The translations under genes were made by a program, and so were the position numbers. This document shows, piece after piece, positions 20,390-42,630 of a stretch of DNA of 44,573 nt (the stretch's first letter is position 1; each line of letters opens with the position of its first letter). The DNA is taken from assembly GCA_965649265.1 (NCBI GenBank), contig CBFGKC010000007.1, positions 135,594 through 180,166 of the forward strand, given 5' to 3'. A model generated the notes under the pieces. The model saw nothing but the letters and a program-made list of their open reading frames with translations. It was not told the origin of the DNA and did not search any database. This stretch comes from a candidate division WOR-3 bacterium. Its GTDB lineage: Bacteria; Hydrothermota; Tepidihabitantia; B3-TA06.

Positions 20390-23300
20390 ATGAATACTGA
20401 CTTTCTGCCGGCCGGATTCACCGAGACGGCTTTCCTTGGTGAGGGTTCAATGAACAAGGTTCTGGCCGTCAGGCGCGAAACGGACGGGAGTGATTTCGCA
20501 TTGAAGATATCGAAGGGAACTGATCCTGCGCGGCGGCTCGAGCGGGAGTTTGCGATACTCGAACGTGTCGAAGTAGACGGTGTAGTAAAGGTTTATGAAT
20601 TCGGCGAACACGACGGTTCAATTTTCTTCATCATGGAACTCGTTCGCGGAGTTCCATTTACTGAATTCATGTCAAGGCGGCGGGCAAACCCCGATTTCGT
20701 GGACGTTTTCTTTGCGGTTTTCCAGCGAGCGGCCTCTATTCTTTCAAAACTTCACAAACAGGGCATCGTCCACGTGGACCTTAAACCGGCGAATCTGCTC
20801 GTAAAGGATGACGGCAAGCCGGTACTCCTTGATTTCGGTTTCGCTGAGGATTTCATGTTAAGCCCAACCTCCGAGCCGTCGGGCACGACTCTTGATTACG
20901 CAGCTCCTGAGCTGTTCACCGGCGGCTACGCTTCGCCTGCCGCCGATATTTATTCCCTCGGGGCCATTGGATATGAAACGTTGAGGCAAAGCAGTCTGTG
21001 GGGCGAGAAATCGCCCCGGGAGCTGATCAGGGCAAAACTAAAGACCCCCCCGGGTCTGGGAACGCTGGAGTTCGACTTGCCGCCAGGCCTGGAGGATATG
21101 CTGATTCGAATGCTTTCGCCGGAGCCCTCGCTGCGCCCTTCCGCCGAAGAAATCATACTCGAAATAGACTGGCTTCTTAATGGGGTGGAATCTTACGCCT
21201 CCGGTGATTTCGAAATTCCTTTGCCCAGATTGATTTTCGGCGGCCGCGACGAAGAGATTGCCGAGTTGGAACGTCTTCTCTTCAAAGAAAATCGCGTCGT
21301 GCATTTGTCGGGCGAATCGGGCACAGGCAAGACAAGAATCTTAAGGGAGCTTCGTTTTCGCTCGCTCTTAAACGACCGCAGCGCACTTCTTCTTGAAGGA
21401 AGGGGCGCCCATCTTTCACTCGTCGATCACATATCTGCATCTCTGGGCATCAAGCACGAGGAGAATCAGGACAAGTGGCAGCGATTTGAGCGGGTATACC
21501 GGGGTATATGCGAGTTCGGCTTTAAAGCGATCCTTTTGGACTCGCCATTGGCGTTATCGTCTGACGAAAAGGAGTTCCTTGGTTATCTTGCCCGCGGGTT
21601 TGACTCTAAAATCGGCATGCTCCTCTCCCAGACCCCGACGGATGTGTATCCCGGTGCGGCAAGGGTTGAACTCGGGAAGCTGGACAAGAAAAAGGTCGAA
21701 GCGCTAATAAAGAGAACGTTCGAAGGACTGAAGGATTACGAGAAGCTTGCAGAAGACCTGGTTTCGACTGCCGGGGGGACCCCGCGCAGGATGAACGAGC
21801 TGCTGGAAATACTTCACGAAGAGGGATGGCTGGCGTGGCGCAGGGGGTGGCTGTACGAACCAGGGAAAGAAGATAAAACGCTCGCAGAAAGGCTTGAAGC
21901 CTGGCTGTATGAAACGCTCTCGCGTCTTGACGAAAACGCAAAACTGGTTCTGAATCTCTTGTCTACGGTCGATTCCGGTCTTTCAGCGGATGTTCTCACA
22001 AAAATCATGGGCGATTCCGCGGCACTGGAACTGAAGGAACTAATGACAAAAGGTCTCATCCGATCGTTTCTTTACCTCGGTATACCACACTATGAATTCG
22101 GAAACGATATCATCAAGCCATATCTTCTGACCCATCTCAGCGAAGAAGAAAAAAAGAAGCTTGCCCTCGTTATGGCCGAAGCACTTGAGGAATTTGCGAT
22201 TCAGATATGGGGTGAAGACCTGGAAGAATGGAGTATTACTTATGTAATACAAACGGGTCTTCTTTTTACTAACGGTGGAGGCGACCGAAGGGCAATTCGC
22301 TATATGATTTCTGCAGGAAAGAAGCTGGTTTTACTGGGAGATCCCGAAAAGGCTTATGAAATCCTGATGCTGGCGCTGAATCTTAAACTAACAACAGAGG
22401 AAAAACTTAAGATATACTACCAATTAGGAGACATTGCCACCAATAATCACAACCCCATACAGGCAGAGGGATTCTTTCTTAAAGCCCTCTCCTTTTCGGA
22501 GAACACACCTGAGGAGAAGACAAAAGCCTTGTTACGTATATCTTTTGCATACTTGTGCGTGGTCGATATCGAAAGAATGGCCGTATTTCTTAAGGAAAGC
22601 GAAATGCATTCCTCTCAAATATCGTCTACACTCAAGGGAAGGCAACTACACTATAACGGCTGGCTGCTTCTCCTGAGGGGGCAGACAGAAGAAGCAAAAC
22701 CTTTGTTTGTTGAAGCTGAAAAGCTCTTAGTCTCCCCTGCCGAAAAACGCAGTGCTTTTTTTGGACTTGCTTCAATATCCATCCGACTAGGAAGGATGTC
22801 GGAAGCGCTGATTTATATGAAGAAAGCTATAGAGAAAAGCAGGGAAGAGGGAAAGATCAGCTCTGTGTGCGTTTACACAGCCGGACTTTCTACCATATTC
22901 TATGGAACAGGTTCTTTCGACGAGGTCGAAAAATGTATAGAAGAATCCCTTCTGATGGTCGAGGGGATAAAATCGCCCCGAGAGACTTCAGAAGTGCTTT
23001 TGTATAAAGTTGTTTTTCTTCATTATTCGGGACAGTACCGGGAGGGTCTGAACCTTATCAGAAAAGCAATGAGAATCTCGGAAAAGATCGGCGATAAACA
23101 CAGGCTGACTACCCTTCGATGGAGGGAGGCTCAGTTCCTTGAGTCTCTTGGCGACTGGAAGGCGTCAGAGAAAGCTTACTCAATGCTCTGGAAGGATTTG
23201 CACAAAACGAAAAATCCTCCCGTCAATTATTTCTTGAAGGACTGGTCAATACTCTGCAGGGAAAAAGGTAAATTCCTTGCCTCCGAGAGGCTGCTTGAAA

Positions 23301-25465
23301 AAGCGGAGCAGTTGGACGAATCCAGAAGTGTGGATCTGGAAATCCAACTGGAAAGAGGCAGAGCCGCGCTCGCTTCAGGTAATCTGAAAAAGGCAAGGGC
23401 TGCTTATAATAAGTTGGTTTTCATGTTCAAGACCCACGAACATGTTCTTTTCGAAAATTACGCGAGCTTATTGGAAGGTGAAATCCTTTTCTCTGAAGGC
23501 AACTTTGAATCGGCGCTGGAGAGACTTGAAACGCTCACTTCCCGCATAAAAACGATAAAGATCCTGGGGGATTTGCAGTATAACACATTCATCGCTCTGG
23601 GCAAAACGCTTGTTGCGCTAAAGAAGTTCGACGAAGGATTATTTTGGTTGCGCGAGAGTTTGAATTTATCGATAATCCAAGAAGCACCGTTCAAGAAAGG
23701 AATTGCGCTTTTCGAAATAGCCAAAGCTGTCCAGAAAGATAAGGGATTCACGGAAAATGTCTTTACTCTTCTTGAAGAAGCGGAGACAATCTTCACTAGA
23801 CTGCAATTAAATCATCTATTGAGAGAAATAAAGGAGATGCTTACTGTGCATAACAACCAGACCAGGCAGGAAAAAGAAAAGGATGATCAGTATCTTGCTG
23901 GTTTGACACAAGTTAGTCAGTTAATCAAAGATCTGAAAAGCAAGCATCTTGAAATGAAAGATTTCCGATCTGGTCTTCCAGTCAGATACCTTGACGGATT
24001 GAAGAAACTTAGTGAACTCATCAACTACAGGCTCGGTCAGGAAAACTTCATGGGCGATCTGCTGGAGATAGTTCTTGAGCTTACGAGCGCAACGCGCGGG
24101 GTTGTATTCATTACAGGTGGAGGCAAACTGCATCCCGTTGCTTCGAAATTGATTGATGAGGCAACTTCGCAGGAGGCTCAACGCATATCGGAAACCGTCT
24201 CAAACGAGCTTGAAAGAGAAAGGGTTCCTATTTACTCGCCCGACGCAACCAGGGACGCGCGCTTCGATCGTGCGCAAAGCATACTTCTAAACGAGATACG
24301 CTCGCTTCTCTGCATTCCTCTGCGAACAAAGGAAAGTCTGGTCGGAACCATCTACGTTGACAGCCCCGAACCCGGACTTTTTGACGAAAATAATACGCTG
24401 TACTTTGAGGCGGTGGGCAACATACTTGCGGCTACCATCGAGCGGTCTTTGGAATTCAAGAGACTCGGTGAGGATCTCGCTCTTCTGCGCGCCAGGCATG
24501 TCTTTAATAAATCCGGGATCGTCATAGGAAGCTCGCCGGCGGCACTGAGAATCAGCGAAAGAATAGAAAGAATCGCACTTTCAAACACCAATATCCTTCT
24601 TGAAGGAGAAACCGGTTCCGGAAAGGGGGTGTTCGCCCGGCTTATTCACGACCTGAGCGAAAGAAAGGGTCGTGAATTCTGTTCAATCAACTGCGGCGTG
24701 CTCCCAGAGAGTATTATGGAATCGGAGCTTTTCGGTTCCAAAAAAGGCGCCTTTACCGGGGCCACCCAGGACAGAACCGGACTCCTTGAAGCGGCAGACC
24801 GCTCTACCGTCTTTTTCGACGAAATTACGAACACTTCTCCGGCAATGCAAGCCAAACTGCTCGAAGTTATTGAAGAACGAGTCATACGCCGCGTGGGCGA
24901 TTCCAAGAACAAAAAGGTGGATTTGAGGTTTATCTTTGCAACAAACCGTGATCTTGAAAGTGAAGTGCATGCCGGTCGCTTCAGGGAGGATCTTTTTTTC
25001 CGGATATCCACAATGACCATCCGAATCCCCCCGTTGAGGGAACGCAAAGAGGACATTCCTGAATACGTGGATTTCTTCCTTAAGAAATTCTCCTCGGAGT
25101 TCAACAAGGAGATAAAAACTATTGACGACGATTCTCTGGGGCTCCTGACAGGGTATTCATGGCCCGGCAATGTACGCGAACTCAGGAACGTAATCGAGCG
25201 CTCGGTGCTCCTGGCGGCAGGCGACCGCATATCGACGGATGATCTTAAGCAGCATCTCCCCGCCTCCCCCAGAGAAAACAGATGGATTTCTGCGAACACC
25301 ACAACAGCGGCGGTGGATTTGGATATGGAGAAGGCAACCCGCAGACTCGAAAAGAGCTTAATCGAGGAAGCCCTGGCTCGTTACAAGACCATCGAGAAAG
25401 CCGCTGCCGCGCTCGGCATTAGCACACGTTCACTATGGCGAAAAAAGAAGGAACTTAAGGGATGA
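20390..25465 (+). CDS. Ser/Thr kinase - P-loop NTPase - TPR - GAF - sigma54 AAA+ activator - Fis HTH fusion
   Basis: Kinase LGEGS/ALK/HVDLKPAN/DFG/APE; Walker A GESGTGKT; TPR-like helices; GAF 'SLLCIPLR...GTIYVD'; GETGSGK, ESELFG, GAFTGA, WPGNVREL; HTH 'KAAAALGISTRSLWRK'. Confidence 0.93.
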   Translation: MNTDFLPAGFTETAFLGEGSMNKVLAVRRETDGSDFALKISKGTDPARRLEREFAILERVEVDGVVKVYEFGEHDGSIFFIMELVRGVPFTEFMSRRRANPDFVDVFFAVFQRAASILSKLHKQGIVHVDLKPANLLVKDDGKPVLLDFGFAEDFMLSPTSEPSGTTLDYAAPELFTGGYASPAADIYSLGAIGYETLRQSSLWGEKSPRELIRAKLKTPPGLGTLEFDLPPGLEDMLIRMLSPEPSLRPSAEEIILEIDWLLNGVESYASGDFEIPLPRLIFGGRDEEIAELERLLFKENRVVHLSGESGTGKTRILRELRFRSLLNDRSALLLEGRGAHLSLVDHISASLGIKHEENQDKWQRFERVYRGICEFGFKAILLDSPLALSSDEKEFLGYLARGFDSKIGMLLSQTPTDVYPGAARVELGKLDKKKVEALIKRTFEGLKDYEKLAEDLVSTAGGTPRRMNELLEILHEEGWLAWRRGWLYEPGKEDKTLAERLEAWLYETLSRLDENAKLVLNLLSTVDSGLSADVLTKIMGDSAALELKELMTKGLIRSFLYLGIPHYEFGNDIIKPYLLTHLSEEEKKKLALVMAEALEEFAIQIWGEDLEEWSITYVIQTGLLFTNGGGDRRAIRYMISAGKKLVLLGDPEKAYEILMLALNLKLTTEEKLKIYYQLGDIATNNHNPIQAEGFFLKALSFSENTPEEKTKALLRISFAYLCVVDIERMAVFLKESEMHSSQISSTLKGRQLHYNGWLLLLRGQTEEAKPLFVEAEKLLVSPAEKRSAFFGLASISIRLGRMSEALIYMKKAIEKSREEGKISSVCVYTAGLSTIFYGTGSFDEVEKCIEESLLMVEGIKSPRETSEVLLYKVVFLHYSGQYREGLNLIRKAMRISEKIGDKHRLTTLRWREAQFLESLGDWKASEKAYSMLWKDLHKTKNPPVNYFLKDWSILCREKGKFLASERLLEKAEQLDESRSVDLEIQLERGRAALASGNLKKARAAYNKLVFMFKTHEHVLFENYASLLEGEILFSEGNFESALERLETLTSRIKTIKILGDLQYNTFIALGKTLVALKKFDEGLFWLRESLNLSIIQEAPFKKGIALFEIAKAVQKDKGFTENVFTLLEEAETIFTRLQLNHLLREIKEMLTVHNNQTRQEKEKDDQYLAGLTQVSQLIKDLKSKHLEMKDFRSGLPVRYLDGLKKLSELINYRLGQENFMGDLLEIVLELTSATRGVVFITGGGKLHPVASKLIDEATSQEAQRISETVSNELERERVPIYSPDATRDARFDRAQSILLNEIRSLLCIPLRTKESLVGTIYVDSPEPGLFDENNTLYFEAVGNILAATIERSLEFKRLGEDLALLRARHVFNKSGIVIGSSPAALRISERIERIALSNTNILLEGETGSGKGVFARLIHDLSERKGREFCSINCGVLPESIMESELFGSKKGAFTGATQDRTGLLEAADRSTVFFDEITNTSPAMQAKLLEVIEERVIRRVGDSKNKKVDLRFIFATNRDLESEVHAGRFREDLFFRISTMTIRIPPLRERKEDIPEYVDFFLKKFSSEFNKEIKTIDDDSLGLLTGYSWPGNVRELRNVIERSVLLAAGDRISTDDLKQHLPASPRENRWISANTTTAAVDLDMEKATRRLEKSLIEEALARYKTIEKAAAALGISTRSLWRKKKELKG

Positions 25466-25658
25466 CACAAATTTGAGACAATTCCTCTCAACATAAAAAT
25501 ATAACTTTATGTGATTTATATTAAATCTGCCACAATTATCATATAAATTATGCCAAGATGTCACATTTTTCCATTTATTGAAATCATAACGAATTCCTCG
25601 TAGAACTTTAAATTACATACAGACGTAGTTTGAGACAAAGAGTTGCTTCACTGACAAT

Positions 25659-25674
25659 TGGCATCAATATTGCT
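25659..25674 (+). promoter_or_regulatory. sigma54 promoter TGGCATC-N4-TTGCT
   Basis: GG 25660-61 and GC 25672-73 give exact -24/-12 spacing; downstream of the sigma54 activator. Confidence 0.8.
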
Positions 25675-25777: not shown

Positions 25778-26314
25778 ATGTTCAAAAAACTCGCACTCAC
25801 ATTCATGGCCCTGGCCATTATCGGCCTTGTCTCAGGCGGCTCAATGCTTCTAGCAGAAGATAATCCCATCTATGAACTGTGGGAGGGCTCATCAGGCTAC
25901 ATAATCGTGCCTCTGAATTATCTGGAGACCGTCTTTGATACCTACACCGTTACCGACTGGCACATAGGAAACCTCATGCCTCATGTTCAACCTCCAAACC
26001 CAACAGGTGTATCTTCAGGCTATTATTCTATCTACGAAAGCGCAACCTATTTCTATACCGACGGTGATCTTTCAGGTTCATTCGCAGGCATTATCCATAC
26101 CGAGAATTCACCAAACGCCTACTGGTACTACGGAGAAGGCACCTGGACATCCAACCTCGGCTACTACGGCACTTGGACAGGCGCCTTCGACGGCGGCAGC
26201 GTGGGAGATGATTGCACCATCACCTTGAAACGCTACTCTCCTGGATACGGCACATTAATCACTTGCGGCCAGATTACCGGTGAATGTAAATCTGTAGACA
26301 GCAGAGAGCCCTGA
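25778..26314 (+). CDS. Secreted hypothetical protein, Gly/Tyr/Thr/Trp-rich beta-structured
   Basis: Signal peptide; 'GEGTW...GTWTG' motifs; two C-terminal Cys plus one more. RBS AAGGAG. Confidence 0.85.
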   Translation: MFKKLALTFMALAIIGLVSGGSMLLAEDNPIYELWEGSSGYIIVPLNYLETVFDTYTVTDWHIGNLMPHVQPPNPTGVSSGYYSIYESATYFYTDGDLSGSFAGIIHTENSPNAYWYYGEGTWTSNLGYYGTWTGAFDGGSVGDDCTITLKRYSPGYGTLITCGQITGECKSVDSREP

Positions 26315-26337
26315 GCTTGAGTGAATTCACTATTTCA

Positions 26338-26369
26338 AAGGGCGGGCAATGCCCGCCCTTGTTTTGTTT
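26338..26369 (+). terminator. Intrinsic terminator
   Basis: AAGGGCGGGCA-TGCCCGCCCTT followed by a T-rich tail. Confidence 0.85.
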
Positions 26370-26542
26370 CACCTTGGAATATAACCCGAGCTTACATCTC
26401 CAGCCCATCGCGACTGCCAATATTGTCACACGCACCTGCCAAAATTGGCAGTTGCGACAGTTGTTGAGATGGTTTCCCGTTTTTGTTTAAATATAACTAC
26501 CTAGAATATTGCGACTTATGGATTTAATCGCCACCTCTGACC

Positions 26543-26558
26543 TGGCACGAGAATTGCT
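26543..26558 (+). promoter_or_regulatory. sigma54 promoter TGGCACG-N4-TTGCT (perfect consensus)
   Basis: GG 26544-45 and GC 26556-57. Upstream palindromes TGCCAATATTGTCA (26415) and TGCCAAAATTGGCA (26437). Confidence 0.85.
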
Positions 26559-26569
26559 CCTTATTAAGT

Positions 26570-26829
26570 CGAGCGGTTGAAGAGAAGAGCAAATCCGGCA
26601 GTGCCGGAGATTTAAAGTTGGGTTGGGAGTCCGTAAGAAGAGGAGGAAGGATGGGAAGATGAGGAGGACGAGGAAGGCCGGGGTAAGTGAGGTTTGGGAG
26701 GTGTGTGGGAGGTAAAAGAAAATGGGAAGGAGGGTAAGGAAGTGTACTTTCGTTACAATCACAGGGAGGAGCTTTGAGGGAGGTACCATGAGAGGACAGA
26801 TCAAAAGCAGTAAGCTTCTTCCCATTTAA
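26570..26829 (+). other. GGA-rich putative sigma54 transcript (sRNA or two small ORFs, 26659-26715 and 26722-26829)
   Basis: 18 GGA trinucleotides in 26606-26796; no long plus-strand ORF. Confidence 0.45.
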
Positions 26830-26856
26830 AAATTAAGATACTCATTAGAGATGGGG

Positions 26857-26953
26857 CTGAGGGCGAGCGCCGGAGGCGCTGGGCGCAAGCTCCACTTCCG
26901 CCATTCCACTTTTACATATCAAAGGAGGAGCGCCGGAGGCGCATTGGTCGAAC
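26857..26953 (+). repeat. ~100-bp imperfect inverted repeat, left of umuDC
   Basis: GGGCGAGCGCCGGAGGCGC (26861-79) and ATCAAAGGAGGAGCG..CGCATTGG (26918-47) are mirrored at 29292-29388. Confidence 0.8.
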
Positions 26954-27018
26954 CAGCGCCCAAGGCGTTTGCGTTCGACGAACGATCCTTTTTTGAAGAT
27001 GCGGCTCCTTGACAAATT

Positions 27019-27103
27019 CTGAGGAGGGCTGGTGTGTTACGGGTGGTGTGTTACGGACGGTGTGTTACGGGAGGAGGGCGGAGGAGGGCTGAGGAGGGCT
27101 GAG
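27019..27103. repeat. Mixed array of CTGAGGAGGG and GTGTTACGG units
   Basis: GTGTTACGG at 27034, 27048 and 27062 (14-bp period), flanked by four GAGGAGGG units. Confidence 0.9.
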
Positions 27104-27430
27104 CGGGAAGGAGCAGTCACTTCCCGCTCTTTATTAGGAGGAGTAGGCTCTTACCCCAAGCAGGGGGAGGAACACGGCTAAAGGCTGCGTACCCACCGCA
27201 CAATATCGGCAACTTTCATCTCGCTCCGGATTTACCGCCCGGCCGTTAAGGACGATCCGGCACCGATAGTGGCCGTTCGTCGTTGACCCCGCCCGTTCTC
27301 CGCATTTACTGCCGCCGCTCATAAACGCTTAACGGCACGGGTCCGGGATTCCATGTTTTCTGTCGACGGGCACGATGCCGGGCTGACCATGTATTTTTAA
27401 CGCTCATGCCCCCTATCGCATACCCCCGAC

Positions 27431-28690
27431 CTACCTGGCCCTGGGCAGTTCGTCCCACCGGGTGGTGTAGGCAGGCGAGAGGTAGTTCTGGTTCATGTAC
27501 CATCTTTCCGCGCTCTCGGTGCCCACTCGCACCGTCTGCGGCCCGTATTTCCTGTTGATGAAGTCCATCACCCTCATCTTTCGTTTCGAGCGTCCTCCGT
27601 ACCCTGCATCGGCAAAAAGACCAAGCTGCTGGCGGTTTTCCGGCATAAGGTCGAGGAGCATGACGCCGGCTTTCATGTAGCGGTAGCCTTCTTTGAAGAT
27701 TTGCTTCAGCGCGGCGGTGCCGACAGTGATCAGTGTGGACGTATCGGCCGTATACTCGCTCAGCTTGACCGTTATGGAGTTGCCGTAGTAGGGCTCGTCG
27801 GCGTGAGGGCTCGAGTTCAGGAAAACCATGATGCAGCGAGCAAGACTTGCCTGATCACGCAGCTTCTCACCTGCGCGGGCTATATAGCCCGAAACGAGTC
27901 CCCGCATCTGGTTGTAGTCGGTGACCCTTTCGCGGAAGCTGCGGGAAACCATTATCTGCTTGCGGCAAGGCAGGTCCTCTAGTTCTATAGCGCTTTCGCC
28001 GCAGAGTTCGCGCGCGGTGCGTTCGAGCACTACGTTGAACTTCGAGCGAACCCAGCGCGGGTCCTGCGCTGCCAGGTCAGAGGCCGTTCTTATACCGCAG
28101 GCCTTCAACTTTTCGGCCCAGCGCCTGCCTACGCCCCAGATGTCAGCGACATCCGTTTTACCGAGCGCGTCTCGTATCTTTTCGGTGGAGTCGAATACGT
28201 GTCCCCCCCCTCCCCCGCTCTCCGAGCGCTTCTTTGCAACCCTGGCCGCGAGCTTGGCGAGCGTCTTGGTTGCGCCTACTCCTATGGAGACGGGCAGGCC
28301 CGTCCACTTGAGGACCGTCTCGCGCGCCTTGCGCGCGTGGGACTCGAGGGACGATCTGGGAAAACCTTCAAGCCCGAGGAATGCCTCGTCTATGGAGTAT
28401 ATCTCGAGATCGGGCGTGAACTGCAAGAGTATCCGCATGACGCGGGCGGACATGTCGGCGTAAAGGGGATAATTCGAGGAAAAGACCTTCACCCTGTGCT
28501 CGACAATGAAATCCCGCCATTCGAACTCCGGAACCGCCATCGGGATGCCGAGCGCCTTTGCCTCCTCGGAGCGGGCGATGATGATGCCGTCGTTGTTGGA
28601 GAGCACGACTATCGGGACCTTTGCAAGCGACGGCCGGAACACCCTTTCGCATGAGGCGTAGAAATTGTTGCAGTCTACAAGCGCGAACAT
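27431..28690 (-). CDS. umuC: Y-family DNA polymerase V catalytic subunit
   Basis: [42 protein letters not shown]-terminal '[13 protein letters not shown]' (DUF4113). Start set at ATG 28690. Confidence 0.95.
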
Positions 28691-28706
28691 GTCACACCGC
28701 GTGTGT

Positions 28707-29201
28707 TCACACAGCGTGGATGACGCTCGTGACAACGCCCCATATTTGAAGCTCCGAGGTCACGGGGATGTCGGGGTAGTCGGGGTTCTCGGCGGCAAGC
28801 CTTAGCCCGCCCCGGCCAAGGACGAGCCGCTTGACGGTCAGCTCGCCCTCGAGTATGGCGATCACGACCTTTCCGTGGGCGGGTTCGAGCGAGCGGTCGA
28901 CCACGAGTATGTCGCCCGGGTAAATGCCCGCGCCCGTCATCGAGTAGCCTGACGCGCGGACAAAGAACGTGGCATCCCTGTGTTTGACGAGCAATTGATT
29001 CAGGTCGAGGTATTCTTCGATGAAATCGTCGGCTGGCGACGGAAAACCGGCGGAAACCCTGCCCCCGAACAGCGGGAGACCCGCTTTAGTGAACTCCCGC
29101 ATATCAGCGCCTGCCGGGGACGCGCTTACACCATCCCCGGCAAGGCCCCCATAAACGACCCCTTGTTCCACCAACCGCCGGATCTTTTCTAATCTGGACA
29201 T
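28707..29201 (-). CDS. umuD: UmuD (S24 autopeptidase)
   Basis: Cleavage site SAGFPSPA, catalytic G.SM and TVKRL. ATG 29201 after AGGAG. Confidence 0.93.
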
Positions 29202-29211
29202 GGCATTCTCC

Positions 29212-29254
29212 TGTTTGTATACATCAGTATACGCAAACAGATGTTTCCTGTCAA
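29212..29254 (-). promoter_or_regulatory. umuDC promoter TTGACA-17-TATACT with overlapping palindromic operator candidate
   Basis: AAAC-N4-GTTT in the spacer (29235-29246); imperfect palindrome TGTTTGTATAC...GTATACGCAAACA over the -10/+1. Confidence 0.7.
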
Positions 29255-29285
29255 GCCCCCGCCCACATCCCGCCGGTGGAATTCC

Positions 29286-29388
29286 ATTCCGCCAATGCGT
29301 CCTGCCGCTCCTCCTTTGATCGACAATAATGGAATCGCAGAAGACCATAGGCTTCTGCCAATGCGCCTCCGGCGCTCGCCCCCCTCAG
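29286..29388 (-). repeat. ~100-bp imperfect inverted repeat, right of umuDC
   Basis: Mirror of 26857-26953; same family as 1-108. Confidence 0.8.
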
Positions 29389-38400: not shown

Positions 38401-40891
38401 AATCTGGGGCATGCGAAACGAGGACTTGAGATATACCCCCGGGAAGCAGGAGGCCGAAATTGCATTCGATTCAAGAGATTCCTACCTTGGAGAATGGAAA
38501 CAAAAGGTCGCCCGCATTTTCGAAACCGGAGGCACGCTCTACATTCCTGAAATCAAGGCAAAAGGGGGAAAACTCTGGGTATCGGAGTATTTTTACGCTC
38601 TCAAGGATGCAAAAGGAAAAGTCGAAAGGGTAGTCATACTGACCGAGGACATAACCGGCCGCAAGCAGATTGAAGAGGCCTTGCAGGAATCCGAGGAAAA
38701 GTACCGACGTCTGGTCGATAAATCGCTTGTCGGCATATACGTCACTCAGGATCATTTAATCAGATACTGCAATCAGAAATTTGCCGAAATATTCGGTTAC
38801 CCGAACACCGAAGAGATTTTGAATAAGAACATCCGAGATATTGTTACGCCGGAAAGCTGGAAAATCATTGAGAAGCAGATAGATTTAAGGATTACCGGCA
38901 AAAAGGAGAGCGCGAGATACGAATTTCAGGGAATCAAGAAAGACGGAACCATTTTTGACGTGGAGGTACTAGGAAGTCGAATCATTCTACAAGGCAGGCC
39001 GGCTATTCAGGGCACAATGATTGACATTACCGAACGAAAATGCGCTGAAGCCGCACTTCGGGAATCCGAGGAACGTTATCGCAATCTCACCGAGGAGGCC
39101 CTCGTCGGTGTTTACATTTACAGCAACCTCTTAAGGAAGTACCTTTTCGTTAATCCTGAGATGTCCAAGATAACAGGGTATACCCAGGACGAACTTTTGA
39201 GAATCGATCCTAACGAGCTTTCGGTTGAAGAGGACTCTTACATACTCAAGGAACGTGAGGAAGCGGTAAAAAAGGGAACGTCTGTCAATCCCGAGTATTC
39301 TATACGCATCAGGCGCAAGGACGGAACCCTTGCAGTTCTTTCTGTCAGAACTCACAGAATTAAATATGGGGGGGAGGACGTCGCTCTCGGGAATTGCATA
39401 GACATAACGGAGCTTGTCAAACAACGACATGAGATTGAGCGAGCAAAGCAGGAGTGGGAGCTGACGTTCGAGTCCATTGACGATCAGGTTCTAATCCTTG
39501 ATTTGGAACGCAGAATTCTGCGAGCCAATCGTGCGGCCGTGAAGTTCACCGAAATTCCCTTGCAGCAATTGATAGGGAAAACGTGTTCAGAGGTTTTCAT
39601 TGTGGGCAGGGTATGCCGTACCCAAAATTGCCCCCACAACAGATGCGTTAAAAACAAAGCTACTGTTCGCTACGAATACAGGGACACCAAAACAAGCAGA
39701 GCTTTTTCGGTATCCACTTCCCCGATTTTTGACTCTTCAGGCAACGTTGCCGCCGTGGTCGAAGTGGCGCGAGACATAACTGAAATCAGGGACATGGAAG
39801 ACGCCCTTGCTTCGTCGGAAGCCAAATTCCGCGACATGGCGGATAGTGTCAGAGACATAATCTTCGCGGTTTCGTATGACGGAACAGTCTCCTACATCAG
39901 TCCCGCAGCGAGAGAGATTCTCGGACAAGAACCGGAGGTTTTCACAGGTAGAAGCATCCTCGGTTTCACCTCGAATATTCTGGATCAGAACACCAGACGA
40001 CTTATAAGCAAGATAATCGAGAATCCCGGGCAAGGAGAGCGTATACCGTCTTTTGAAATAGAAGCCCAGGATATCAAAGGCCGTAAACATACCCTGGAGA
40101 TCGTAGCTCGAAGGCTCAAAAACCAGATTGTGGGAGTGGCACGAGACATATCTGATCGCAAGCGGATGGAAAATCAGCTGCTCAGAGCCTCCAAACTGGC
40201 TTCAATAGGCGTTCTGGCCGCAGGCATTGCGCATCAGGTTAACAACCCACTTGCGATAATGCTTTCGGCATCCACAGTCCTGCGCGATTTGTACGATCGT
40301 TCCCCGAACCTTACCGAGGAATCGAGAGCCAAAGCGGTAAAGTATTTCGGTATGCTCGAAAACCAGGTAGAAAGAACCCGCAAGGTAGTTTCGGGACTAC
40401 TGGCTTTTGCCCAGGACAAGAAACTTCATATAGTCAAGACGCAAATCAATCCGCTGGTCAAGGAGTCCTTGCAGCTTCTTATTCAGAATTTCGGAGACGG
40501 CAAGATCTCGTTGAAACTCTTGCTCAGCGACGATTTGCCGCCGGTTTTCGTCGATCAGGCCGCGCTTCAGCAGGTAATTGTCAATCTTGCTCAGAATGCA
40601 ATCGAAGCAATGGAAGGGAGAGGAACCTTAACGGTTTCGACTCAAAACGGGGAGGGGAAAAATATTCAAATCATCTTCAAAGATACCGGACCGGGGGTGA
40701 CCGAAACATCACGAGAAGAGATATTCGAACCTCTCTTCACGACCAAAGCGAGTTCAAAAGGAACAGGTCTCGGGCTGCCATTGAGCGTAATGCTGCTTGA
40801 GCGATTCGGCGGGAAAATCTTTCTCGATAAAACATCAGGGAAGGGCGCGATTTTTGTGGTTGAAATACCTTACCATTTTGATGGAGAATAA
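35441..40891 (+). CDS. Cytoplasmic multi-PAS/GAF histidine kinase
   Basis: About 11 PAS units ending in DIT-like motifs, one GAF, H-box AHQVNNPL, N-box NLAQNA, DTGPG, FTTK, GTGLGL. Confidence 0.95.
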   Translation: MSVRLNRNTSEEHLGDKDSIYQSLYDNIPVGIFRTDQEGKILSANPSLVKMLGFSSEKELSAIRAFDIYLIPDDGRKIRERLNVEGLVSNFETQLKRKDDSILWVSINVRAVVSEKKGILFYEGVIEDITARKKTETALRESEEQYRSMIDSMGEAIHVVDTDLRILLINPSFRKWMKTLGFERNVVGKTIFEVFTFLSDKVRNEYKQVFMTGQTLVSEDTNVVKGEKIITETRKIPILEEGKVKRVITVIEEITERKKALEALRESNEKYQSLVERANEGIAIVQNDEIEYANPRLVEMLEYDCAKLLLHSKVSRHIHPDVRKTVMERYRQRLLGAEVIPLYESALLTRGGRRIEVELSSELITYQGSPAVMVLIHDITERKKAEEDLQRSKERYRAVSELTSDYAYSLAVTADGKITLEWITEAFNRLTEFSKGPVNIPDDLKDVIHPDDFGILVESLNALVRGESDVSEYRVIDNNGNVHYLLDSAKPVFDENGVLVRIYGAAQDITERKLAEQALKLRAGFENLIANLSTSFVNLPIDKMDDGINKALKEIGEFAGVDRSYVFRLHDNSTMMSNTHEWCTRDVKPQMKNLKNLPLHAFPWFSSKLLIGETIYCPRVSQLPDEALAEKKEWKKEEIKSLVNVPMLLEGRVVGFIGFDSVKTEKEWPKEILDLLRIVGESFASAFERKRAEEEIRDREIRYRALFENAGDAIMLLKDRKVIDCNSKTLDLFGCTRDQIVNLGPYMFSPKYQPDGSLSNESEELKIESALKGKQQRFYWRHIRMDGSHFDAEVTLNRVDIGEGTILQKIIRDITEQKQSERALKESEELYRGLIETSPDAITLTDLSGNFIMLNHQAAKLYGVNDENELLGRNAFDFFDPEEIDNARLEVLSILQKGAVKNIEHLLHRSDGSTYPAEMSSSLVFDGQGNPKGLISVIRDTSERKKVEQALIASEALNRAVIERSPLGISICDCEGHLISHNKAWQKIWGMRNEDLRYTPGKQEAEIAFDSRDSYLGEWKQKVARIFETGGTLYIPEIKAKGGKLWVSEYFYALKDAKGKVERVVILTEDITGRKQIEEALQESEEKYRRLVDKSLVGIYVTQDHLIRYCNQKFAEIFGYPNTEEILNKNIRDIVTPESWKIIEKQIDLRITGKKESARYEFQGIKKDGTIFDVEVLGSRIILQGRPAIQGTMIDITERKCAEAALRESEERYRNLTEEALVGVYIYSNLLRKYLFVNPEMSKITGYTQDELLRIDPNELSVEEDSYILKEREEAVKKGTSVNPEYSIRIRRKDGTLAVLSVRTHRIKYGGEDVALGNCIDITELVKQRHEIERAKQEWELTFESIDDQVLILDLERRILRANRAAVKFTEIPLQQLIGKTCSEVFIVGRVCRTQNCPHNRCVKNKATVRYEYRDTKTSRAFSVSTSPIFDSSGNVAAVVEVARDITEIRDMEDALASSEAKFRDMADSVRDIIFAVSYDGTVSYISPAAREILGQEPEVFTGRSILGFTSNILDQNTRRLISKIIENPGQGERIPSFEIEAQDIKGRKHTLEIVARRLKNQIVGVARDISDRKRMENQLLRASKLASIGVLAAGIAHQVNNPLAIMLSASTVLRDLYDRSPNLTEESRAKAVKYFGMLENQVERTRKVVSGLLAFAQDKKLHIVKTQINPLVKESLQLLIQNFGDGKISLKLLLSDDLPPVFVDQAALQQVIVNLAQNAIEAMEGRGTLTVSTQNGEGKNIQIIFKDTGPGVTETSREEIFEPLFTTKASSKGTGLGLPLSVMLLERFGGKIFLDKTSGKGAIFVVEIPYHFDGE

Positions 40892-42327
40892 TGCATTCAA
40901 TGCTGCCTAAGGAGTTGATACGCGTCCTGCTTGTGGACGACGAGGAGTTTTTTCTTGAAACGACCCTGGAGGCTCTTTCGACAAGAGGATGCGAGGTCGT
41001 TACCGCCCAGAGAAGCCAGACGGCCCTGGAAATAATCGAAACTCAGATGTTCGAAGTAGTGGTCCTTGACATCAAAATGCCCGGCATGGACGGTCTGGAA
41101 TTGCTGCGCATGCTCAAGAACGAAAGACCGACTCTCGAGGTCATAATGCTCACTGGTCACGCTTCCGTGCCTTTAGCGGTCGAGGCGATGAAGCTTGGAG
41201 CATTCGACTTTCTTCTGAAGCCTTGCAGCATTGAAGATATGATGCGGTCAATAAACAAGGCTGCAAGAATCGGCCGCCTGGAGCGCAGAACGCTCGCTCT
41301 GGAAAAGGAACTTGAACGCACAAAAGGGCTCGGCCCGATTGTGGGTTCTGGAAAAGAAACCAAGCGGATACTTAAGTTTATCGAGAAGGCGTCAGCATCC
41401 GATCTGCCGGTTCTCATAACAGGCGAAAGCGGCACAGGCAAGGAACTTGTAGCCAGAGCTATACATAATATGAGCACTCGTTCGGCAAGACCGCTCGTAG
41501 TGGTGGACGGCGCCACTCTGCGCGAGGAGCTTCTGGCATCAGAACTATTCGGACACGAGAAAGGGGCTTTCACAGGTGCACTCCGGAAAAAAGCCGGCCT
41601 TTTTGAAGTCGCCGACAGGGGGAGCATATTCCTCGATGAGATAGGGGAAATCTCTATGCCTAACCAGGCCGCCCTGCTGAGAGTCATTGAAACGGGCAGG
41701 TTCAGACCGGTCGGGTCGGTACACGAGGTTAGCACAGACGTGCGGATCATTGCGGCCACCAATAAGAATCTGGACGAGTCCATATCGAAAAAAACATTCA
41801 GGGAAGACCTCTACTACAGATTGAAAGGGCATGATATAACCATTCCCCCTTTAAGAGAAAGAAGAGAGGACATACCCTTGCTTATCAAACATTTCATCGA
41901 AAAGAACTCCGAGAAATACGGCGCCGTTTTCGGCGTTTCCGAAGAAGCGCTTCAATACCTCTCATCTTACGACTGGCCGGGCAACGTAAGAGAACTCATG
42001 CACATAATGGAACAAGGCGCCATTGAAGCCAGGGATGACGGAAACCTCATCAAAACGCACCATCTTCCTCCAAACATCACCGCAAGTAAAAAGCTGGAAC
42101 CACCTGCGTCAAACAAGGAAGTTTCGAGTTCCGCACCCGCTGACGGCGATGGCATAAATGAAAAAATAAAGGATAAGCCGGAGCTCTCGGAGTTCAACAG
42201 GCGCTGCGAAGCCTACTACATATCCAGACTTCTCGAAGAACTCGGTGGAAACAAAACCCGCGCAGCAAAAATCCTTGGGATAAGCCGCTCGATGCTCTAT
42301 GACAAGCTGCGCCGCCAGCGCCCGTAA
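40891..42327 (+). CDS. NtrC-family sigma54-dependent response regulator
   Basis: REC (VDDE, LDIKMP, KP), GESGTGKE, GAFTGA, WPGNVREL, Fis HTH. Confidence 0.96.
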   Translation: MHSMLPKELIRVLLVDDEEFFLETTLEALSTRGCEVVTAQRSQTALEIIETQMFEVVVLDIKMPGMDGLELLRMLKNERPTLEVIMLTGHASVPLAVEAMKLGAFDFLLKPCSIEDMMRSINKAARIGRLERRTLALEKELERTKGLGPIVGSGKETKRILKFIEKASASDLPVLITGESGTGKELVARAIHNMSTRSARPLVVVDGATLREELLASELFGHEKGAFTGALRKKAGLFEVADRGSIFLDEIGEISMPNQAALLRVIETGRFRPVGSVHEVSTDVRIIAATNKNLDESISKKTFREDLYYRLKGHDITIPPLRERREDIPLLIKHFIEKNSEKYGAVFGVSEEALQYLSSYDWPGNVRELMHIMEQGAIEARDDGNLIKTHHLPPNITASKKLEPPASNKEVSSSAPADGDGINEKIKDKPELSEFNRRCEAYYISRLLEELGGNKTRAAKILGISRSMLYDKLRRQRP

Positions 42328-42614: not shown

Positions 42615-42630
42615 TGGCACAAAGATTGCT
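42615..42630 (+). promoter_or_regulatory. sigma54 promoter TGGCAC-N5-TTGCT
   Basis: GG 42616-17 and GC 42628-29; candidate UAS GTCCGTAAAGAAGGAC at 42484-42500. Confidence 0.85.

Follow-up and report, generated by a model that had tools for sequence, protein, structure and literature searches.

What does a sigma-54 promoter transcribe when no gene stands behind it? We asked this of one promoter, P2, in a 44,573-nucleotide (nt) stretch of a candidate division WOR-3 genome (the window; G000:C7:135594-180166, where G000 denotes this genome, 2.74 Mb in 27 contigs, 51% GC and 96% complete, and C-numbers denote contigs). The P2 unit occupies a 1.1-kb intergenic gap between a + strand pair, a sigma-54 activator gene and a gene for a 178-amino-acid (aa) protein, and a convergent - strand umuC/umuD-like pair. 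An earlier note on this DNA had described an orphan unit under a perfect sigma-54 promoter, with a 5′ hairpin and 18 GGA motifs in about 190 nt, and each of these observations was reproduced: the promoter element at 26543-26557 has no mismatch, the hairpin lies at 26594-26608, the GGA motifs (18, counted with overlaps) fall between 26606 and 26796, and there is no real gene before the convergent umuC. We found that the unit is best explained as a non-coding RNA under the control of an activator and sigma-54, with unstructured, Shine-Dalgarno (SD)-like purine repeats that would serve as a decoy or pairing surface, a reading in which we place about as much confidence as doubt.

The promoter, its upstream sites, the lack of an open reading frame (ORF), the composition, and the relations to a paralogous and an orthologous locus can be read from the sequence itself. 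P2 (TGGCACGAGAATTGC, 26543-26557, + strand) matches TGGCAC-N5-TTGC at every position, and from the usual promoter spacing transcription would start near 26569. The genome encodes RpoN and nine activators with a full-length Sigma54_activat match, three of which are kinase-fused proteins of about 1700 aa. A strict sigma-54 promoter pattern matched 25 sites, most of them 30-280 nt upstream of genes whose products have signal-peptide-like N-termini; three have no gene behind them, namely P2, C2:161136 and C2:202430. Two activator-site-like elements lie approximately 90-130 nt upstream of the -24 element of P2: TGCCAATATTGTCACA (26415-26430), which matches TGCCAA-N2-3-TG[TA]CACA, and the perfect 16-base-pair (bp) palindrome CTGCCAAAATTGGCAG (26436-26451). 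The gene just upstream (20390-25465, + strand) encodes a 1691-aa sigma-54 activator with Pkinase, AAA_16, TPR, GAF, Sigma54_activat and HTH_8 domains (Pfam), which presumably controls both downstream promoters, P2 and the one-mismatch sigma-54-type promoter P1 (TGGCATCAATATTGC, 25659-25673, + strand) that drives the 178-aa gene. P1 is likewise preceded by a match to the TGCCAA-N2-3-TG[TA]CACA motif (TGCCAAGATGTCACA, 25551-25565, + strand). This motif occurs at three sites in the genome, upstream of P1, of P2 and of a promoter on contig C4, all of them upstream of sigma-54 promoters behind two paralogous giant activators; because the motif was derived from the P1 and P2 sites, only the C4 site is independent. 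Together with its sequence relatives described below, this arrangement suggests that P2 is probably real and activator-controlled.

The predicted transcript would open with a conserved 5′ module (26570-26613, + strand), consisting of the 17-nt block CGAGCGGTTGAAGAGAA (26570-26586) and a hairpin (26591-26613) built on a 6-bp G+C stem with a 3-nt loop at 26594-26608, extendable to the full interval with a 2-nt bulge. Behind it lies a purine-rich, C-poor tract (26630-26800, + strand), largely unpaired by prediction, which contains seven GGAGG and most of the 18 GGA. Base counts across 26570-26829 were G 101, A 82, T 48 and C 29. A density of 18 GGA per 200 nt is the genome maximum (mean 3.7, standard deviation 2.1), and the only other segment to reach it is a coding acidic repeat; purine content rises to 75% per 200 nt (genome standard deviation 5.3%), with C at 11%. 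The anomaly is mostly one of composition: against a dinucleotide-preserving expectation of 13.6 ± 2.3, 18 GGA were reached in 43 of 1000 shuffles, a mild enrichment, and GGAGG, the SD core, was more strongly enriched, with seven copies versus 2.4 ± 1.5 expected (reached in 12 of 1000 shuffles). Part of the tract is repetitive, with an 18-nt unit present 2.2 times at 26637-26676 (Tandem Repeats Finder, TRF) and an 18-nt direct repeat at 26697-26714 and 26768-26785.

Structure prediction gave a mean unpaired probability of 0.67 over 26630-26720 and a long-range stem with arms at 26720-26732 and 26815-26827 (+ strand; 13 nt, 92% complementary) that closes the 3′ domain of the tract. In the minimum-free-energy and ensemble folds, a small hairpin loop holds only one of the 18 GGA; another five share an open loop of 33 nt, and all the others fall in paired segments or internal loops. 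The earlier note had cautioned that GGA stem-loops are not obvious in so C-poor a tract; we counted 29 C in 260 nt. Readings as a G-quadruplex, triplex or R-loop were considered by eye; G3 runs are frequent, but the intervening loops are longer than in canonical motifs. A likeness of GGAGGAAGGATGGGAAGA to the start of rpsG in one relative (L008) was set aside as coincidence, since G000 holds no second copy and a motif search did not locate its rpsG.

The first plausible 3′ end is a weak terminator-like hairpin followed by TTTTTT (26966-26994, + strand), which would give an RNA of about 425 nt. Between it and the tract lie two copies of a REP-like hairpin repeat (26855-26945; core AGCGCCGGAGGCGCT) that has more than 40 genomic matches. 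These copies were probably inserted into the transcript's 3′ part, or are carried on it. A 428-nt RNA that includes the REP-like part and the weak terminator folds better than shuffled sequences (z = -2.9), because the pyrimidine-rich flanks of the repeats pair with the purine tract. The REP-like repeat, with its pyrimidine-rich flank, also occurs in the same-genus genome G001, and G000 carries four tandem copies approximately 62-63 bp apart at C3:162546-162774.

The most informative relative of the unit is found in another genus. Genome G002 carries, on its contig C25, the only clear ortholog of the window activator (51% identity over the full length), and the order of elements behind that gene is the palindrome TGTTTCA-N4-TGAAACA, 115 nt, and a promoter whose 17-nt core (G002:C25:11074-11090) was 100% identical to that of P2 in a DNA search. 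There follow approximately 200 nt without an ORF of at least 60 aa, containing the tract GAGAAGGAGGAAGGAGGGATGAGGGAGGTGGAAGGAA, then a 9-bp G+C hairpin with UUUU, and only then a second palindrome, a second promoter and two genes for secreted proteins of about 485 aa. Because the G002 unit has its own terminator and the genes have a separate promoter, it appears to be a self-contained RNA gene. The palindromes there lie 115 and 109 nt upstream of their two promoters, a placement analogous to that of the P2 palindrome. The purine tracts of the window and G002 share a 36-column local alignment with a score of 32, compared to 20.1 ± 2.7 for composition-preserving shuffles, none of which reached it (0 of 300). 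The comparison with relatives that the earlier note had proposed thus yields, as far as the two sequences can tell, a likeness at the level of motifs and not of codons, with no shared ORF.

Within G000 itself, a paralogous locus at C4:137149 carries the identical CGAGCGGTTGAAGAGAA block followed by a related hairpin region, so that approximately the first 60 transcribed nt are shared, although the C4 activator is only 42% identical to that of the window. In promoter context the CGAGCGGTTGAAGAGAA block occurs nowhere else in the genome. The predicted C4 transcript consists of a 235-nt G-rich leader, genes for secreted proteins of 155 aa and 153 aa (170 aa from an upstream GTG), and a terminator.

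Wider searches added little. Among the 11 genomes of the family comparison set (G000 included), a pattern combining the promoter and 5′ block matched only the two G000 copies, and it had no matches in the collections of metagenome contigs and genome contigs. An activator search of the metagenome contigs returned five loci, all of them generic activator C-termini of 45-47% identity and uninformative. The locus G005:C258, considered as a second ortholog, belongs to the other activator subfamily, whose members are followed by a pair of small proteins. The umuC flanks of G002 and G005 hold no related element. Short matches to the tract in five relatives proved to be coding low-complexity K/E/D-rich sequence or ribosome-binding sites.

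The other two ORF-less promoters of G000 lead to further candidate units. The first, which we call famA, is a conserved small RNA candidate at C2 approximately 160930-161136 (- strand), behind the promoter at C2:161136. It was exposed by the pattern "promoter + RGGAGGARG", run over 272 genomes of the phylum, 20 of which matched; most matches were ordinary ribosome-binding sites, and the gap limit of the pattern missed the window element. Eight of the 11 family genomes, across four genera, carry a single copy of famA each (loci L043/L076, L075, L070, L074, L069, L071, L073 and L072). Its body of 45-150 nt is G/A-rich and opens with (A)TAGAGGGAG; the terminator 5′ arm and flank, ACCATGGGGCGCTTGG, which in every copy lie 70-170 nt behind a sigma-54 promoter, are invariant, and the 3′ arm varies through wobble pairs. 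The G000 copy is G/A-rich, with 11 GGA in 250 nt, and a terminator closes it. famA resembles the window element in its sigma-54 promoter, its G/A-richness with GGAGGAAGG-type motifs, its occurrence in the same bacterial family, and an SD-like run with ACCAUG near the 3′ part; it differs in its strictly conserved terminator arm and in not adjoining an activator gene. A covariance model of the eight famA members scored the genome's true copy at 96.2 bits and the window at 10.1 bits (26712-26832, E-value 0.12) and 4.5 bits (26601-26669), no better than unrelated window sites, which places the window element outside famA. Rfam searches at E ≤ 0.1 on the C2, C4, G002 and G010 loci returned nothing relevant, and famA had no match. 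The remaining ORF-less sigma-54 unit, at C2 approximately 202300-202430 (- strand), spans about 130 nt up to a terminal G+C hairpin with loop AACAGGAG; upstream of it come three tandem paralogous genes for 133-aa secreted proteins with their terminator, and convergent genes follow it.

On the non-coding RNA reading, the adjoining 1691-aa kinase-fused activator would bind the sites at 26415-26451 and open the -24/-12 promoter at 26543-26557. The RNA would start near 26569 with the conserved 17-nt block and hairpin and run into an approximately 170-nt C-poor, largely single-stranded tract carrying 18 GGA and seven GGAGG in repeated modules, several of them followed by AUG; its 3′ end would arise from processing at the REP-like hairpins or from the weak terminator (26966-26994). 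It would constitute a second, post-transcriptional output of a sensor that also drives the gene for the secreted 178-aa protein. The unpaired SD-like purine repeats may act as a decoy for a partner other than CsrA; candidates include three tandem RRM proteins, the 30S anti-SD end CACCUCCUUUC (the 16S rRNA 3′ end of G000 is GGATCACCTCCTTTCT) and pyrimidine-rich RNA segments. The RRM candidates, possible binders of single-stranded RNA, are encoded by three tandem RRM_1-domain genes of 115-128 aa at C3:12629-14252. Two further observations favor such an RNA: the first 17 transcribed nt are kept at C4 despite the divergence of the activators, and famA provides a precedent in the same lineage for a sigma-54-driven, GGA-rich, terminator-bounded small RNA, to which C2:202430 adds another ORF-less sigma-54 unit.

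This design has counterparts in Pseudomonas, with which the likeness is one of layout only. PMC5113210 places crcZ downstream of cbrB in all Pseudomonas genomes analysed there, and the window unit, like CrcZ and CrcY (CbrB- and sigma-54-dependent sponge RNAs), would be an RNA gene directly downstream of its own sigma-54 activator gene; a sigma-54 promoter with activator sites next to an activator gene is present in both. CrcZ also shares several single-stranded short purine motifs and a decoy role, which for the window is a proposal. However, the CrcZ motif is A-rich (AAnAAnAA) and binds Hfq/Crc, whereas the window carries GGAGG and GGA in a genome with no Hfq gene found; the motif AANAANAA occurs zero times in 26570-26829, there is no Rfam match, and the activator is a 1691-aa kinase-fused protein and not a two-component response regulator. 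Similarly, PMC4253122 describes nrsZ of P. aeruginosa as a modular gene that follows ntrC, has a tail-to-tail neighbor and is transcribed from a TGGCAC-N5-TTGCW promoter. NrsZ, NtrC- and sigma-54-dependent, resembles the window unit in its position between tail-to-tail genes behind an activator and in its repeated modules. Its modules, as outlined there, are stem-loops that expose ACAGGCAG and pair with rhlA, whereas the window repeats are unstructured and purine-rich, and our fold analysis predicted no NrsZ-type stem-loop modules from them; there is no sequence or Rfam relation. Measured against this class of activator-adjacent sigma-54 small RNAs, the window has the promoter, the upstream sites and the ORF-less stretch, and its 3′ end would be the weak terminator about 425 nt downstream. 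An unannotated sponge RNA, one of the two possibilities raised in the earlier note, is therefore upheld insofar as the unit is ORF-less, sigma-54-driven and probably a non-coding RNA with a GGA-rich, terminator-bounded counterpart in G002, but not as a sponge for CsrA.

Several findings weigh against this interpretation. Transcription of the unit is something that we infer, as are the RNA ends and the mechanism. The segment 26569-26840 folded alone is no more stable than shuffled sequences (z = -0.57). No strong intrinsic terminator directly follows the tract, and the first candidate is weak (six pairs, three of them G-C) and lies beyond the two REP-like insertions. A DNA search with 26480-26900 across 41 genomes (G000 and 40 relatives) matched the REP-like 3′ part but found no match to the tract in any relative, and the same-genus genome G001 lacks the whole locus. 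The comparison with G002 rests on one orthologous locus and on 36 nt of similarity in low-complexity sequence. No extended complementarity of the tract to other genomic sites was found, and the complement of the 17-nt block, allowing up to three mismatches, had scattered intragenic matches in the genome, none convincing. Neither CsrA nor Hfq was found (the best Hfq score in G000, PF17209, was 13.7 bits against a cut-off of 27). Finally, at the C4 locus the homologous promoter and 5′ end belong to an ordinary mRNA with a 235-nt leader.

It follows from this last point that the window copy could itself be a leader whose gene has been lost, and this is the alternative that survives best, one that we regard as possible but appreciably less probable. 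The unit would then be the duplicated promoter-plus-leader of a secreted-protein gene that a rearrangement or the insertion of repeats has stripped of its coding part; transcription may continue, but the tract would have no function of its own. The strongest argument is the C4 locus, where a homologous promoter and the identical 17 nt lead through a 235-nt G-rich leader into the 155-aa gene, and other sigma-54 promoters of the genome likewise have long leaders (238-284 nt). REP-like and short tandem repeats, which fill 26855-27103, also suggest a disturbed region. Downstream synteny is not kept, umuC being on a different contig in both G002 and G005, and the locus is absent from G001. However, tblastn of three neighboring secreted proteins against 26600-27430 found nothing, and a profile of 31 secreted-family paralogs gave only negative bit scores in the six frames of 26560-27430, so no remnant of the family is present there. 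The G002 unit, in turn, has the layout of a self-contained RNA: it ends at a terminator of its own, and the genes beyond it are served by another promoter. In the window, promoter, upstream sites and 5′ block have been kept perfectly despite the 42% activator identity, unlike a neutral relic; and the window tract is far richer in GGA than the C4 leader, with 18 versus 8 in the first 250 nt. The earlier note had named the decayed 5′ end of a longer gene as the finding that would undo its proposal: that finding is borne out in part, since at C4 the shared promoter and 5′ end serve the leader of a real gene, but the window retains no remnant of one.

A more ambitious version of the non-coding RNA reading, which we offer as speculation with a small chance of being right, would make the tract part of a lineage-wide class of sigma-54-driven RNAs that mimic translation-initiation sites, unstructured and bearing several GGAGG (plus AUG) modules. 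In a phylum without CsrA and Hfq, such RNAs might titrate the 30S anti-SD end or a GGAGG-binding protein (e.g. the RRM proteins), and a kinase-fused sensor could in this way retune translation of the secreted regulon; famA, with its SD-like run, ACCAUG and terminator, would be the core member.

We then considered whether the unit is an mRNA. No ORF of at least 50 aa with an SD sequence lies within 900 nt of P2. The two small basic ORFs in which the earlier note saw a possible micropeptide pair do exist: an 18-aa ORF MRRTRKAGVSEVWEVCGR (26659-26715, + strand), nested in a 30-aa TTG ORF that starts at 26623, and a 35-aa ORF beginning MGRRVRK (26722-26829, + strand), each with an SD-like sequence 4-10 nt upstream of its ATG. 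We judged neither to be a gene, and an operon for one or two such peptides is improbable. With seven GGAGG in the tract any ATG is SD-preceded, and the R/K/G-rich beginnings, including the similarity between the two starts on which the earlier note had remarked, follow from AGG/AAG/GGA triplets. By visual reading the G002 RNA holds only a 7-codon ORF, and no equivalent of either window ORF exists there or in the C4 leader. Pfam matched neither these ORFs nor a 53-aa + strand ORF or a 112-aa - strand ORF, none of which has a counterpart in the related loci, and the small ORFs have no DNA-level match in the 40 relatives. Nor do the peptides carry signal peptides, which are typical of the proteins in this sigma-54 regulon.

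It is less probable still, and in our view very unlikely, that there is no feature here at all but decayed material of dispersed GAGGAGGGC-type repeats beside a chance promoter match. GGAGG-rich 9-mer arrays abound in the genome, such units are present in most of the other segments with at least six GGAGG per 200 nt, one GAGGAAGGC unit lies inside the tract, and our own arithmetic from the information content of the pattern puts the strict promoter matches expected by chance at about five. Yet 26570-26850 is unique DNA with no dispersed-repeat matches when compared by BLAST to the genome, TRF found only the 18-nt unit and no 9-mer arrays, and the promoter has shared upstream sites and a core conserved in paralog and ortholog. 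Such repeats do occur further downstream, where TGGTGTGTTACGGG (three copies) and GGAGGAGGGC (3.4 copies) occupy 27020-27103, outside the RNA proper. Across the genome, TGGTGTGTTACGGG- and GAGGAGGGC-type 9-/10-mers are scattered both between genes and in frame within long ORFs, where they read as E/G-rich inserts; examples are C3:191975-192174, C7:114520-114719, C11:1188-1387, C13:2355-2554 and C20:15941-16140.

That the transcript instead acts as an antisense regulator, running on into the convergent umuC/umuD operon so as to interfere with it, is a reading to which we give hardly any weight. The unit does face the umuC-like Y-family polymerase gene (27431-28735, - strand), whose stop lies approximately 860 nt from the predicted start and which, with the S24-peptidase umuD/lexA-like gene (28707-29348, - strand; both identified by ORF and Pfam), bounds the orphan unit. 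Two terminator-like hairpins intervene, however, at 26966-26994 and at approximately 27101-27130 (the latter by eye), and the G002 counterpart RNA does not adjoin umuC.

RNAs of the CsrB family carry many GGA motifs in the loops of short hairpins, and the CsrB/Rsm family is sigma-70- and GacA/UvrY-dependent. The window unit shares with CsrB and RsmX/Y/Z a high GGA density in a non-coding transcript, but it lacks a CsrA partner, holds its GGA outside hairpin loops, has a sigma-54 promoter and has no Rfam match. The membership in this family suggested by the earlier note, as a sponge that titrates CsrA through 18 GGA in about 190 nt (five in A-N-GGA context), is effectively refuted: none of the 11 family genomes has a CsrA match at E ≤ 0.001 (PF02599; best score in G000 12.4 bits against a cut-off of 27, with the E. 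coli, B. subtilis and T. maritima controls above it), so the RNA of an organism with no CsrA is not of CsrB type, only one of the 18 GGA lies in a small hairpin loop, and Rfam at E ≤ 10 on 26300-27450 returned no CsrB/Rsm family, only 11 weak matches on the upstream terminator or repeats. Across the whole window, no Rfam family reached its gathering threshold.

Post-transcriptional regulation is essentially unexplored in this uncultured lineage, and titles and abstract openings in the literature on 'Stahlbacteria' named no small-RNA work. G000 is without CsrA and Hfq, yet has GGA/GGAGG-rich ORF-less units under sigma-54 promoters at no fewer than three sites. If these are real RNAs, they would extend the CrcZ/NrsZ design to a distant phylum and to a new activator type (kinase-fused, about 1700 aa), imply a purine-motif decoy mechanism and a partner for it, and provide concrete candidates for the group's first regulatory RNAs. 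If the unit is only an orphaned leader, it is ordinary.

The 178-aa product (25778-26314, + strand) is a predicted secreted protein, and its gene ends in an intrinsic terminator at 26338-26360 (+ strand; 10-bp stem, then a T-rich tail). It belongs to a family of 31 paralogs, G/T/W/Y-rich predicted secreted proteins of approximately 130-180 aa with no Pfam family; about 25 members form one tandem array at C13 approximately 74.6-87.4 kb, and others lie at C4:137386-138505 and C2:35.2-35.9 kb. Sigma-54 promoters precede the window and C4 members at least; PMC3162934 presents sigma-54 as a controller of the bacterial exterior. The approximately 1700-aa activators number three in G000 (window 20390-25465, C4:131825-136900 and C1:267173-272335 on the - strand) and fuse a Ser/Thr kinase, a STAND-like AAA_16 domain, TPR and GAF to the sigma-54 AAA+ domain and HTH_8; downstream of all three stand sigma-54 promoters for secreted proteins. 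This architecture was found only in this bacterial family, in 10 of 132 genomes of the class at E ≤ 1e-100. The window contains a second activator gene (40891-42327; 478 aa, Sigma54_activat), and approximately 290 nt past its stop lies the perfect sigma-54 promoter TGGCACAAAGATTGC (42615-42629), before an ORF of 110-128 aa, a locus that repeats the layout of an activator gene followed by its promoter.

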